Below are positions 3,020 to 10,377 of a stretch of DNA of 10,938 nucleotides, piece by piece (the first letter of the stretch is position 1; each line of letters starts with the position of its first letter). Location of the stretch: NCBI GenBank assembly GCA_029856525.1, contig JAHQXC010000042.1, forward strand, positions 1-10,938, in the 5' to 3' direction. Origin of the DNA: Candidatus Odinarchaeia archaeon (GTDB taxonomy: Archaea; Asgardarchaeota; Odinarchaeia; Odinarchaeales; Odinarchaeaceae). Under the pieces are notes generated by a model. It worked only from the letters and a program-made list of their open reading frames with translations. It had not been told where the DNA came from and did no database searches. Both the position numbers and the translations under genes were made by a program.

Positions 3020-3337
3020 ATGTCTGAAAACTCTTCAACCCCTAAAAAAAGAGTGGCTAAGAAACCAGCTGTGAAAAAAATAGGTGAAACAGAGTTTGTC
3101 ATTAAGATCGGTCCTCCAGTTCTCACTAGATATGAGCGTAGTCGAATCATAGGCGCACGAGCCTTACAGATATCCATGGGCGCGCCTATACTCATAGACT
3201 TTCAGGGTAAAATGGATCCTATTCAAATAGCTGAAGAGGAGCTTAAAAATTTAATACTCCCTATCATGGTGACTAGGACACTACCATCCGGTGAATCTCA
3301 GAGTATCCCTATAAAAGTTTTAATGAGCGGTTCTTAA
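3020..3337 (+). CDS. rpoK: DNA-directed RNA polymerase subunit K (Rpo6/RPB6/omega family)
   Basis: [22 protein letters not shown] is the Rpo6/RPB6 signature, followed by [15 protein letters not shown] 3020, 4 nt after the thermosome stop, is preferred over the track start 2936, which overlaps ths. Confidence 0.96.
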
Positions 3338-4348
3338 ATATAAATCTCTTATTTTTTTAATCTCTATATACCTATTTTTTATTTTCTCAGATTGAATATC
3401 TACAATGCTGTAGGGTCTGTGAGTTGTACTTAAAATGAAGCTATAATTTTTAAGAACATGGATGTCTTTTATCAAAAAATCTTTTAAAATTTTAAATTTC
3501 TCTTCATCACCGTATAGAAAGTTTATCGGTAAACCTGTGAAAAAGACGAATCTTTTATCTTTTACAAATCTATTAATTAAATTCAACCATTCTACTAATT
3601 CACTATAAGAATTCTTAGGAATTAAGTCAAGCGGGTGTATACCGTCGTAATTCTTCTCAATGAAGTCTACTTCTTTCCATGGGTTTCCATCCGTATGCAG
3701 AATAGCATATAACCCTTTAGATTTTATAGTCGAGCTGATTCTCCTATGGTTTTCTCTCCAAACTTTATTTATAAATTCAACCGGGTATAAGAGACCATGG
3801 TAGTCGAATACATCGTCAGCGATTCTAACAGCGTCGAAAAATTTGATGAATCTTGAATTCTTCAAAATATAAATGATATATTCTGTAAGCTTATTATGAA
3901 TTTCCTCAGCTGCACAAGTATTCACCAAACAGAGGTAAGCGTATTCGAAGCTATGCGCTAACTGTTCCTTATTTAAATTTTCACTAGCGCAAAAAGCCTC
4001 CGCTGTCTCAGTGGGACCTATCATTTTCAGCATTCTAAACCGGTCTGTCTCTGCTAGCAGATTTTTAAACACGCTGATTCTCTTATTAAACTCCTCTAAA
4101 AGCTCTTCTTTAGAAGGCCATTGATAACTGTTAATGTTTATTTTATTAGCCCAGTTTAACCTACTTGTAACTCTGCTAAATGGCCCACCGTGCACGTAAA
4201 AATCTTCGAATCTATTAATTCTACCTGATACGGTGACGATATCGCTGTAAATATTTTCGAGAAAAGTGTCTCCGATCTCTATTTGAAGCGGGGTTATCCC
4301 GGTTTTAACTCCTTTAAACAGTTTAATTATTATCTCTCTCATAATCAT
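3320..4348 (-). CDS. Uroporphyrinogen decarboxylase family / MtaA-CmuA-like (UROD/MetE-like barrel) protein, function uncertain
   Basis: Family-like motifs: Y.WP, GPTE, IADD...GLL.P..F...W, LHTDGN and DGIHPLD. Alternative start at ATG 4342. Confidence 0.72.
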
Positions 4349-6412: not shown

Positions 6413-7552
6413 TTAAGTTTTCTCCACTTTAACCAGGTTTAAATCCTCGTCTAAATATATTTTAAAACTGTGATCTCCATGCTGTATTGAGAAGGGTATA
6501 GGATAGCTGTTAATATTTTCAAAGTATGTTGAATCCATAGTGAATTTTATTTTAGTCGAGCAATAAGGGCATTCGAGTATCCTAGTTATCCGGCTCGGGA
6601 TCTTCCCCTCTTCTTTAAATATTTTCACAAACTCGCTTCTCTTCTTATCAACCCAGTTATTTATTACTACACGGCCTTCAGCTAGCACGCCTTTAATATT
6701 CTCTAGAAGATTTAACATTACCTCTTTAACTTTATCTTTTCTTTCACCGGTCTTCGACATGAAGAAAAAAGAGAGATGGTATCCCTGTTCCGGTTTCGCC
6801 ATCACTCGGAAAACACCCTCCTCTCCGAAGCCGCGGGTAAGCTTTCTAATAATATACGTGTCTAATTCATCTTTTACCGGTAGATTTAAAGAGAGAATCG
6901 CTGAATTCACACATTTTTTAGCTAAACCATTAGCTAAACTATACTCCTCGTAATCGCACTTATCGCATTCAACTTCCTCGCAAAACACACACGGTGTGTC
7001 TATATTCCTGTAAGGGCAGTTATAAGGTTTTAAATCTGTAATCTTATCAAGGACTTCTTCTATACTCATCATTTGAGGCGGCTGTTTAACGTGAATTTTG
7101 CAAGCCTCCTCCCCCTCCCATTTACTCTCCAATATCTCTATCACGAAACCAGGATTGAAAACATCCGCTATAACCTTTGAACCCGGTAAACATATAAGCC
7201 TGCATAAAGGGTTAGGTGAAACACTCTCACCTATATCCATTATAGGGCACTTAGTCACTTTAACGCTGATAACATCATCGCTTAAACTTTTCACATTAAC
7301 TTTGAATCCGAAAAGCGGCATGTATTTTTCATAGAATTTTATAATGCCTTCACGCCCCTCGCCTTCATCATATATTTTAATCTGGTTTAAAACTTTTTCA
7401 AAAACTTCATCTTTCTCTTTAGATAGAAGTTGAGCTGCATCCCCTCCATATTTCGCAACCATCTTAGAAAATATCATAGTATAAAAGTTGAATAAGCTCT
7501 CTCTTAGAATAGATAATCTTTCATCTATTTTATCAGCTTCACTCAATTTCAT
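6413..7552 (-). CDS. Multidomain protein: V4R-like Cys sensor domain + Cys-rich linker + ARPC4 (Arp2/3 subunit 4)-like domain + C-terminal CxxC/HxxH zinc finger
   Basis: aa 215-312 (VNSAILSL...DELDTYIIRKL...KPEQGYHLSF...KDKV...ENI...IN...EFVKIF) parallels the recalled eukaryotic ARPC4 pattern INSVRVSI...DEIEKILCHKF...KPVEGYDISF...KHKL...EEI...VN...EFLKNF. aa 1-157 has CP-x-C-x3-C...C. aa 328-361 has CPYC...HGDH. Confidence 0.78.
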   Translation of the reverse strand: MKLSEADKIDERLSILRESLFNFYTMIFSKMVAKYGGDAAQLLSKEKDEVFEKVLNQIKIYDEGEGREGIIKFYEKYMPLFGFKVNVKSLSDDVISVKVTKCPIMDIGESVSPNPLCRLICLPGSKVIADVFNPGFVIEILESKWEGEEACKIHVKQPPQMMSIEEVLDKITDLKPYNCPYRNIDTPCVFCEEVECDKCDYEEYSLANGLAKKCVNSAILSLNLPVKDELDTYIIRKLTRGFGEEGVFRVMAKPEQGYHLSFFFMSKTGERKDKVKEVMLNLLENIKGVLAEGRVVINNWVDKKRSEFVKIFKEEGKIPSRITRILECPYCSTKIKFTMDSTYFENINSYPIPFSIQHGDHSFKIYLDEDLNLVKVEKT

Positions 7553-7663: not shown

Positions 7664-8164
7664 ATGGGAAATTTTAGAATACTTAAAAAATCAATTTTAA
7701 TGTCTACTCGCGTTAAAAAACGATTTATACCAGCTGTTCTATTTTACTGTATTCTCTCATGGTGGGTTGCTTTCACAATTCAACTCGGAGACACTTTTCT
7801 AGTCACCCTCGGTATTATAGGCGGTCTTATTATAGCTACAGTGTACGGTTTTATTCTATCCCAGTTTAGGAAGGCGCAGATCGCCACACTGAAATGTATC
7901 GGGTGGGGTAACTCTAACATTCTACTTTTACTTATCGGCGAAATCTTATTCGTCTCTCTTCTAGGCTATGTTTTAACCTTGGAGATCGATATTCATATTC
8001 TCGGTGTGAGCACATATTTCGAAGATATATTAATTCAATTCGTTTTCTCGGGTCCAGCTTTAGGTTTATCTCTACTAGTTGTGATAATAGCGCAGATACC
8101 GGGTATTATTCTAGCCTACTGGAGGACGCTTAAAGTTAGACCTATAGTTGCTTTAAAAGGTTGA
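7664..8164 (+). CDS. Minimal FtsX/MacB-type (type VII) ABC transporter permease
   Basis: RKAQIATLKCIG coupling motif (family consensus R.REIA.LKA.G), four hydrophobic segments and a C-terminal RPIVALK motif. Directly upstream of an ABC ATPase. Confidence 0.88.
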   Translation: MGNFRILKKSILMSTRVKKRFIPAVLFYCILSWWVAFTIQLGDTFLVTLGIIGGLIIATVYGFILSQFRKAQIATLKCIGWGNSNILLLLIGEILFVSLLGYVLTLEIDIHILGVSTYFEDILIQFVFSGPALGLSLLVVIIAQIPGIILAYWRTLKVRPIVALKG

Positions 8165-8174
8165 AGTGGTTGAA

Positions 8175-8873
8175 ATGACGCAGAAAGTTCCTATTATAAT
8201 AGCTGAAAACGTGTCTAAAGAATATAGACGGGGACGGGAGATAGTTAAAGCCCTAGTAAAAGTGAACTTGGAAATATATGAAGGCGAGCGCGTCTGCTTT
8301 TTCGGACCGAGCGGCAGCGGTAAAACTACTCTACTCAACGTTTTAAGCGGTTTAGACCAGCCTACGAGCGGTAGAGTAATATTAGACGGCTCGGATACAA
8401 GAGAGCTCGATGAGAGAATATTCCCTAAGATTAGAAGGGAGAAAATCGGTTTTATATTCCAAGACTTTAATTTAATCCCTGATTTAACAGTTATTGAGAA
8501 CGTTTCCTCCCCGTTGTGGCCGACTGATATGAAATCTAAGAAAATCGAGGAGCTTGCTATCTCAGTGCTCAGAGAAGTTGATATGATCGATAGGAAAGAT
8601 CATCTGCCTAGACAGCTCTCAGGCGGGGAGCAGCAGCGGACTGCTATAGCCCGCGCTCTAATTACACGGCCTAAAATTCTATTCGCTGATGAGCCGACCG
8701 GTAACCTAGACTCTAAGACTGGTTTAGAAATAATGAATCTGCTTAAGAAAATAAACGCTAACGATAAAACAACGATCGTCGTCGTCACGCATGATGAGAA
8801 TCTTCTCAAATTCGCTAATAGAGTTTTCGAGGTGGTTGACGGTAAAATCTCTTTATCTAAACGCGGCCAATGA
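8175..8873 (+). CDS. ABC transporter ATP-binding protein (LolD/MacB/FtsE-like)
   Basis: Walker [11 protein letters not shown]-loop IGFIFQ, signature LSGGE, Walker [13 protein letters not shown] and H-loop VTHD. Start is ATG 8175 or GTG 8166. Confidence 0.97.
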
Positions 8874-9663: not shown

Positions 9664-10377
9664 ATGATTTTAATGAAACCTGAGAAAATAATTCCTTCAC
9701 AGCTATTCTCTAAATGGAAGTTAACTGTTCAAATATTAAATTGTATATCCAATAATAGAGATAACACCATCCCACGGATAATGAAGAAGACGGGTTCAAG
9801 CTACACTGCTATTAAGAATATTATAGAAGAGTTAATCGCACATGGAATAATCGGGGAGCAGAAAATCTCTGAATCGAAAGATAGAGGTAGACCGCCTAAA
9901 ACATATATAATTCTAAAATCGTTCGAAATAAACTATCCTCCTAGAAAATATGATCTACTCTTATCTTATCTCATCTCCAGTTTAAAATCTAAAAACGAAG
10001 TAGACCTCCAGCAGCTATTAGCTGAGATAGGAGTCCAGATGGCTGTTGAAAAAGCATTTGAATTAAAAAACCATAATATAAAAATAAACTCTATAAGCGA
10101 CTTAGCTGTAGTCATCAGCAAGGACTTAGAAAGTGAGAACATCCCCTATGACGTTACCGTGCACGATAACTCATTGGAGATAAAAATCTACTCGTGTGTT
10201 TTCAAAAAAATATCTACCGAATTCTCTCCTATAATATGCCTAGTCCATGAAAATTATTATGCGAAACTTTTAGAAGAGACTTTAAAATTGAAGTCGAATA
10301 TAATTCACACATCGAATCTTTCAAAAAATGACTCAGAATGCTCTTTTCTTATTACACCTGTAAAACCATTAACATGA
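9664..10377 (+). CDS. Winged-HTH transcriptional regulator with C-terminal Cys-containing sensor domain (COG2345/SufR-like)
   Basis: N-terminal HTH ending in RGRPPKTY, then YPPRKYDLL. C-terminal C178, C192, H195 and C226 (CVF, IICLVH, ECSF). Alternative start at ATG 9673. Confidence 0.82.
   Translation: MILMKPEKIIPSQLFSKWKLTVQILNCISNNRDNTIPRIMKKTGSSYTAIKNIIEELIAHGIIGEQKISESKDRGRPPKTYIILKSFEINYPPRKYDLLLSYLISSLKSKNEVDLQQLLAEIGVQMAVEKAFELKNHNIKINSISDLAVVISKDLESENIPYDVTVHDNSLEIKIYSCVFKKISTEFSPIICLVHENYYAKLLEETLKLKSNIIHTSNLSKNDSECSFLITPVKPLT

Follow-up and report, generated by a model that had tools for sequence, protein, structure and literature searches.

A three-module Odinarchaeial protein built around an ARPC4-fold domain, with predicted self-pairing and a candidate actin contact

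Eukaryotic ARPC4 (p20-Arc, PF05856; chain F of 1K8K, 1TYQ, 3DWL and 6W17) consists of an α/β globular part followed by a helix of ~40–50 residues. A 2017 Nature paper is reportedly the first to have listed an ARPC4 family in Asgard archaea. Asgard homologues of Arp2/3 subunit 4 have already been described (PMC7444086; PMC12583498), and are listed among the eukaryotic signature proteins in the current catalogue (bioRxiv 10.64898/2026.10.28.762692). On the eukaryotic side, isolated ARPC2/ARPC4 binds filaments (PMC9894260), and the 2.7 Å structure of the branch junction places ARPC4 R158 in salt bridges with actin D80 and E83, with N154 joining the network (PMC10918085). Here we describe an ARPC4-like gene on a 10,938-nucleotide stretch of DNA (the window), which is part of contig C70 of an Odinarchaeia genome (assembly GCA_029856525.1; 1.32 Mb, 93% complete). 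The gene, at positions 6413–7552 of the window on the minus strand, encodes 379 residues plus a stop codon, and its product comprises three modules, the middle one of which (module 2) corresponds to ARPC4. Our literature search returned no description of the three-part Odin form, of its cysteine knuckle, of self-pairing or of co-variation with actin, which is no proof that none exists.

An ARPC4-fold module and its Asgard relatives

The gene and the elements of module 2 are located as follows.
6413–7552, minus strand: whole coding sequence (CDS); encodes the three-module protein, whose orthologue OdinLCB4_000280 carries a 'hypothetical' annotation
6605–7078, minus strand: module 2, residues 159–316; predicted complete ARPC4-fold domain (profile matches, AlphaFold2 (AF2) model, Foldseek, VIA, ESM Atlas)
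6956–7018, minus strand: cysteine knuckle, residues 179–199; probable zinc site, C179-x8-C188-x2-C191-x4-C196, plus C199 in Odin
6767–6796, minus strand: KPEQGYHLSF motif, residues 253–262, in the central β-strands (alignment)
6608–6757, minus strand: long C-terminal helix, residues 266–315; predicted dimer interface (DSSP on the model, conservation, two-copy prediction)
6647–6661, minus strand: NNWVD, residues N298–D302; in alignments N298 corresponds to ARPC4 N154 and D302 to ARPC4 R158

Sequence comparison and modelling together make module 2 almost certainly a homologue of eukaryotic ARPC4. The Pfam ARPC4 profile aligns through positions 63–156 of its 167 with residues 211–300 (hmmscan E 2e-4; 21.4 bits, cut-off 22.2), reaches 22.9 bits in a six-frame search of the genome, and matches 7/7 Odinarchaeial orthologues, the best at E 1.3e-6. 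In a phmmer search of PDB sequences, ARPC4 chains come out on top, S. pombe 3dwl_F (E 5e-4) followed by 1k8k_F, and only ARPC4 chains lie below E 0.02 among all PDB sequences; the top clusters of an ESM Atlas search carry PF05856. When 1.84 billion representatives were searched with a profile built from the seven orthologues, stand-alone proteins of 144–191 residues came up that match residues ~160–311 over their whole length, with E values down to 4e-23, and that lie above the Pfam ARPC4 cut-off themselves (30–41 bits). These Asgard 'Arp2/3 subunit 4' proteins, which bear Heimdall-, Hod-, Thor-, Prometh-, Wukong-, Frey- and Njordarchaeota labels in the source records, share with the Odin module the cysteine knuckle, an I-N-x-W helix motif and a hydrophobic stripe along the long helix. 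They are single-domain proteins, and most of them have Arg where ARPC4 has R158 and come with an Asp80 actin. In the protein of the Odinarchaeum order (Odin order), a V4R-like module precedes the ARPC4-like one and a zinc-ribbon-like module follows it, Asp or Glu stands in place of R158, and actin has Pro at residue 80.

A first-pass annotation of the window, made from the letters alone, had placed an ARPC4-like core at 6614–6916, which encodes residues 213–313 (minus strand). The assignment to ARPC4 has held, as Pfam, PDB sequences and the modelled fold all point to it, and the segments NSAILSL, DELD, KLTR, KPEQGYHLSF, KDKV and EFVKIF are all present in the order that was claimed. The span was right for the C-terminal two thirds of the module and too short for the rest, omitting the first third with its four-cysteine knuckle. 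Because the whole-length stand-alone relatives match residues ~160–311, we place the module at 159–316 rather than 213–313; it thus begins at residue 159, ~55 residues upstream, with an N-terminal helix and the cysteine cluster. Opposite KPEQGYHLSF, S. pombe ARPC4 has KPVQGYDISF and 9dlx_F has KPVEGYDISF; NSAILSL aligns with NSVRFSI of ARPC4. In an alignment of 51 family members (A2), the former motif is kept across the Asgard family as EPExGYxISFF, and the NS..S motif is kept as well.

AF2 modelling of module 2 gave a predicted local distance difference test score (pLDDT) of 89 and a predicted template-modelling score (pTM) of 0.82. Foldseek against the PDB returned ARPC4 chains of Arp2/3 structures as all of its top 9 matches (TM 0.69–0.74, E down to 4e-8, 156–165 columns). 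With VIA-align, the model superimposes on ARPC4 at Z 15.0 and a root mean square deviation of 3.0 Å over 150/158 residues, model residues 2–154 lying on chain residues 7–168; ARPC2 (p34-Arc, PF04045) follows at Z 8.7, through its second α/β domain and C-terminal helix, and the best unrelated fold reaches 4.2. Distant structural neighbours at Z 3–4 include peptide-binding secretion chaperones. The second place of ARPC2 agrees with the common ARPC2/ARPC4 fold that the annotation had invoked, although ARPC2 has two α/β domains, is a far weaker match than ARPC4 and shows no sequence match. The long C-terminal helix that it had also described appears in the model as residues 266–315, 50 residues by DSSP. 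An unrelated fold had been named as the outcome that would speak against the proposal, and this objection fails since the modelled fold is that of ARPC4 over the whole length. By these models module 2 shares the ARPC4 fold from end to end, and both homology and fold are as secure as computation allows.

Compared with eukaryotic ARPC4, module 2 has the same build of globular part and long helix, retains NS..S, KPxxGYxxSF and the N154 asparagine, and is predicted to pair in the ARPC2/ARPC4 pattern. It differs in overall identity (~20%) and in its N-terminal third, where the four-cysteine knuckle is unmatched by the Pfam profile. The Odin protein differs further in its predicted self-pairing, in its fusion to two modules and in the Asp at the R158-equivalent position.

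Across the 51 sequences, C179 and C196 of the knuckle are invariant, C188 is conserved in at least 90% and C191 in at least 70%. This stretch has no match to the Pfam ARPC4 profile, since the Pfam matches of nearly all Asgard members start only at about profile position 53–68, a few starting at 13–36. The pattern of cysteines suggests that the knuckle binds zinc, which would stiffen the ARPC4 fold. A separate observation concerns family f21, in which five members (L015, L018, L019, L021 and L033) have CxLDPDHxCC in place of CxxCxxxC, suggesting that the metal site there has been changed or lost.

We surveyed 301 Asgard genomes and found the Pfam ARPC4 family in 78 of them, mostly as open frames of 150–210 residues. 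The three-part fusion is seen in the Odinarchaeum order only, in 4/4 genomes of the studied genus (host included) and in G044, which belongs to that order but to a different family; elsewhere in Asgard the proteins are mostly stand-alone, at ~150 residues. All six orthologues of the studied protein (61–88% identity, 377–384 residues) come from Odinarchaeia, the nearest being OdinLCB4_000280, a 'hypothetical protein' of Candidatus Odinarchaeum yellowstonii.

Two other genomes join the ARPC4-like module to a different C-terminal extension of ~200 residues. In proteins P0017 and P0037 (L034 2573–3682, plus strand; L035 2441–3574, plus strand; 361–435 residues in total), the ARPC4-like module is N-terminal and is followed by a Pro/Glu/Thr-rich linker with a conserved LPPxPTD and then by a helical C-terminal module of ~80 residues. 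Stand-alone genes also have recurrent neighbours of their own. In family f21, a Roadblock/LC7 gene lies directly upstream on the same strand at 10 loci (e.g. L015 2168–2704, minus strand), and the two genes may form an operon; in family f4, a conserved helical protein of 148–186 residues with no Pfam family occupies that place at 13 loci (e.g. L007 847–1290, plus strand). We tried the conserved 148-residue neighbour as a hidden ARPC2-like partner and rejected it, as comparison with the ARPC4-like profile by hhalign found no resemblance (probability 0.3%).

Predicted self-pairing, with no ARPC2 over the cut-off

The first-pass annotation had proposed that the protein may homodimerise through antiparallel C-terminal helices in the manner of ARPC2/ARPC4. 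Two-copy structure prediction, run on isolated module 2 without modules 1 and 3, scored 0.57, while the best control scored 0.00; in calibration, the 0.57 mark was reached by 20/30 solved one-chain pairs and by 1/23 solved single chains. At least 73% of contacts agree between runs, and the partner pLDDT is at least 82. Specifically, the predicted interface is symmetric: the long helices run antiparallel around I297, with helix 229–239 of either copy packing against the distal helix of its partner. A conserved hydrophobic stripe formed by residues 275, 278, 279, 282, 286, 290, 297, 300, 301, 308 and 312 runs to the end of the long helix, and the predicted interface coincides with it. The predicted pair has the geometry of the ARPC2/ARPC4 clamp (PMC9894260). 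Module 2 is thus predicted to pair with a second copy of itself via antiparallel C-terminal helices. The proposal stands in so far as the prediction passed its controls with the helices arranged as foreseen; the dimer itself is a model, and may echo the known ARPC2/ARPC4 pair.

The inventory of the host genome bears on this pairing. No protein over the ARPC2 (PF04045) cut-off was found in any of the 301 Asgard genomes, host included, and neither ARPC3 nor ARPC5 gave a match in the host genome, which has one ARPC4-like gene and no paralogue of module 1, 2 or 3 that we could find. The host actin is a single gene split over two contig ends (G000 C3:5747–6319 and C8:1–477; L002, L003). Arp2 and Arp3 were not found, as this is the only actin-family gene in the 93%-complete genome; ARPC1, a WD40 protein, was not searched. 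The window itself contains no actin or Arp gene, as the annotation had noted. The genome also has weak profilin-like and gelsolin-like matches. Because ARPC2, ARPC3 and ARPC5 gave no match and there is one ARPC4-like gene and one actin, the seven-subunit Arp2/3 complex is not present; in comparison with that complex, the Odin genome yielded no ARPC2, ARPC3, ARPC5, Arp2 or Arp3. Since no ARPC2 exceeds the cut-off in 301 Asgard genomes, a self-pairing clamp is a reasonable reading of the predicted interface.

Co-variation between helix position 302 and actin residue 80

N298, the counterpart of N154, is conserved, while D302 occupies the position at which eukaryotic ARPC4 contacts actin through R158. 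Forty genomes bearing an ARPC4-like gene were queried with Odin actin, and all 37 in which actin was found carry a eukaryote-like one. In the Odin actin, helix 79–86 reads WPAMEKIW, with Pro at the eukaryotic D80 position, and this is common to 5/5 Odin-order genomes examined.

For the analysis of co-variation, the best actin and the ARPC4-like gene were taken from each of 30 Asgard genomes. An Arg equivalent to R158 goes with actin D80 in 22/30 genomes. The Odin order has Asp with actin Pro80, family f13 has Asn or Ile with actin Gln80, and one Njordarchaeales-like genome has Glu with actin Lys80, which is a charge swap. Among the 30, no genome changes only one of the two positions. For this pattern, actin column 80 ranks 1 of 147 variable actin columns (Jaccard 1.0, next 0.89), and position 302 ranks 1 of 130 ARPC4-like columns (next 0.70). 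The three changed lineages are separate on the actin tree, and G051, whose actin is equally divergent, keeps D with R. Moreover, D302 lies outside the predicted dimer interface. For the Asgard family, this co-variation supports docking of ARPC4-like proteins on actin subdomain 1. By the same comparisons the Odin protein may bind actin, although its own contact is possibly remodelled or lost because the Asp/Pro pair is non-complementary.

The second-best actin column in this analysis (Jaccard 0.89) is position 44 of the Odin fragment, eukaryotic residue 26, a neighbour of the acidic D24/D25 patch in subdomain 1. Most genomes have Gln there, whereas Odin has Arg.

Flanking modules, neighbourhood and competing readings

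The remaining two modules of the protein are located as follows.
7079–7552, minus strand: module 1, residues 1–158; V4R/Bet3/H-NOX-like (ATC_hydrolase-type) by Pfam, relatives and a weak model
6416–6604, minus strand: module 3, residues 317–379; C2H2 zinc-ribbon-like, CPxC ... HxDH plus β-strands, by relatives and conservation

In module 1, Cys102, Cys117, Cys121 and Cys151 are conserved within the Odin order. Pfam ATC_hydrolase (PF14196) matches it in 6/7 orthologues below threshold (best E 3.1e-6), the studied protein scoring 16.3 bits against a cut-off of 28.1. Its stand-alone relatives match more clearly: P0028 hits ATC_hydrolase at E 1.3e-16 (62 bits), and P0029 at E 2.5e-10 and also MetOD1. 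Atlas feature matches for module 1 are ATC_hydrolase-type clusters. A full-length AF2 model, built from the 7 orthologues only, has a pLDDT of 57.6, with 33–62 in the ARPC4 part and 50–73 in module 1; its matches over module 1 to Bet3/TRAPPC3, TPC6, H-NOX and the DmpR sensor domain are a weak lead only. Module 1 resembles V4R, Bet3 (TRAPPC3), H-NOX, ATC_hydrolase and MetOD1 in the fold of this weak model and in the clear matches of its stand-alone relatives, and differs from ATC_hydrolase in that the studied protein is below the Pfam cut-off and the model confidence is 50–73.

The relatives of module 3 (E 9e-6 to 5e-4) are stand-alone proteins of 65–89 residues and one protein, P0036, in which it is joined to winged-helix domains; across 14 sequences, C328, C331, H358 and H361 never vary. 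Family matches are weak and generic (Cys_rich_CPXG 0.003, Zn_ribbon_Brz 0.007, Rpo12 0.014), and no named Pfam family fits. The neighbours of the stand-alone module 3 relatives were uninformative, and searches of PDB sequences with the module 1 and module 3 profiles gave nothing significant.

In the window, the gene is accompanied by genes for CorA, a thermosome subunit, an Rpb6-type RNA polymerase subunit, a TauE-type exporter and a MetE-like protein, and further by an ABC transporter, a SIS-domain protein and a winged-helix regulator. The nearby regulator at 9664–10377 has a sensor part that gives no match to the module 1 profile. Two further observations on the window may be recorded here. 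An open reading frame of 342 residues (3320–4348, minus strand) with no Pfam family at E 0.001 lies between the genes for the Rpb6-type subunit and TauE. At 7664–8873 (plus strand), an ABC ATPase stands beside a very short FtsX-like permease (166 residues), and this pair diverges from the ARPC4-like gene across a spacer of 111 bp.

Taken as a whole, the sequence and model evidence would fit the following mechanism. Two copies would pair via their antiparallel C-terminal helices into a symmetric version of the ARPC2/ARPC4 clamp, without ARPC2. The outward helix face around residue 302 would dock on subdomain 1 of the single host actin in the way that ARPC4 docks on a mother filament, and the sensor-like and zinc-ribbon modules would tune or target binding on the actin side. 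The protein could then serve as a filament tether, bundler or seed. We regard this full reading, an ARPC4-fold homodimer clamp that docks on actin, with a zinc knuckle and tuning by the flanking modules, as evenly poised between right and wrong.

Several points weigh against it. All support is computational, and because the predicted geometry is the same as that of the solved ARPC2/ARPC4, the dimer prediction may have passed through likeness to those structures. The co-variation comprises three events only, among related genomes, and the Odin pair D302/actin P80 is not charge-complementary and cannot form a salt bridge. A second eukaryotic contact, ARPC4 R55 to actin E99, finds no counterpart, Glu99 being present in 0/36 sampled Asgard actins (S, N, A or Q instead). 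Cysteine conservation is the whole of the case for zinc binding. Relatives of modules 1 and 3 sit in sensor or regulator proteins, not cytoskeletal ones; none lies within ~1.5 kb of 30 stand-alone ARPC4-like genes, where no conserved operon was seen, and no cytoskeletal or actin-related gene is found among the neighbours of the ARPC4-like gene studied here.

Much of this would also suit a protein that has nothing to do with actin, in which the ARPC4 fold is a dimerising or peptide-binding scaffold of a sensor or regulator. The V4R-like domain would then be the detector of a ligand, a metal or the redox state, and the zinc ribbon would contact another protein or nucleic acid. The ATC_hydrolase/MetOD1-type relatives of module 1 and its V4R, H-NOX and Bet3 fold matches suit such a role, as do the winged-helix DNA-binding domains fused to the module 3 relative P0036, the secretion chaperones at Z 3–4 among the distant fold neighbours, the housekeeping and transport genes nearby and the non-complementary D302/P80 pair. 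However, the co-variation of position 302 with actin 80 falls on a contact that was named beforehand from the branch-junction structure; within the Odin order both D/E302 and actin P80 are conserved, and therefore neither is drifting freely. The family is also widespread in Asgard, and the 37 genomes in which actin was found carry the eukaryote-like form. We consider a scaffold without actin unlikely.

The long helix might instead pair elsewhere, in cis with module 1 or 3 or in trans with an unrecognised stand-in for ARPC2. In eukaryotes ARPC4 and ARPC2 form an obligate heterodimer (PMC9894260); here the ARPC4-like domain is flanked immediately on either side by a fused module, and the dimer prediction used the isolated module alone. 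Stand-alone members of the family also have lineage-specific conserved neighbours, namely the helical protein of 148–186 residues (13 loci) and Roadblock/LC7 (10 loci). Yet the two-copy prediction passed while its controls stayed at 0.00, the helical neighbour does not resemble the ARPC4-like profile, no ARPC2 exceeds the cut-off in 301 genomes, and most family members keep the hydrophobic stripe although they lack modules 1 and 3, all of which makes a different partner quite improbable. That the likeness to ARPC4 arose by chance or convergence in an unrelated protein is scarcely credible: the single-sequence Pfam score falls just under the curated cut-off and identity is only ~20%, but every orthologue matches, stand-alone relatives exceed the cut-off, the module is collinear with ARPC4 over 150/158 residues at Z 15 where unrelated folds reach only 4.2, and the NS..S and KPxxGYxxSF motifs are held in common.

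These results bear on how the seven-subunit Arp2/3 complex, and with it the eukaryotic cytoskeleton, came about, and ARPC4 is the only one of its subunit families found in Asgard among those searched (ARPC2 in 301 genomes; ARPC3 and ARPC5 in the host genome). A full ARPC4 fold, the lack of ARPC2, predicted self-pairing and co-variation with actin together yield a concrete, experimentally testable model, that of an ancestral, symmetric clamp that grips actin. Should it prove wrong, the family would stand as an example of a 'eukaryotic signature protein' with a different ancestral role. As a tentative suggestion, Asgard ARPC4-like proteins could be zinc-stabilised homodimeric clamps on the sides of actin filaments, holding them by the contact between helix and subdomain 1 that ARPC4 makes in the branch junction, and thereby a symmetric precursor of the ARPC2/ARPC4 core of Arp2/3. 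In the Odin fusion such a clamp could also come under regulation: wired to a V4R-type sensor, it might let the organisation of actin respond to a small ligand, a metal or redox state.

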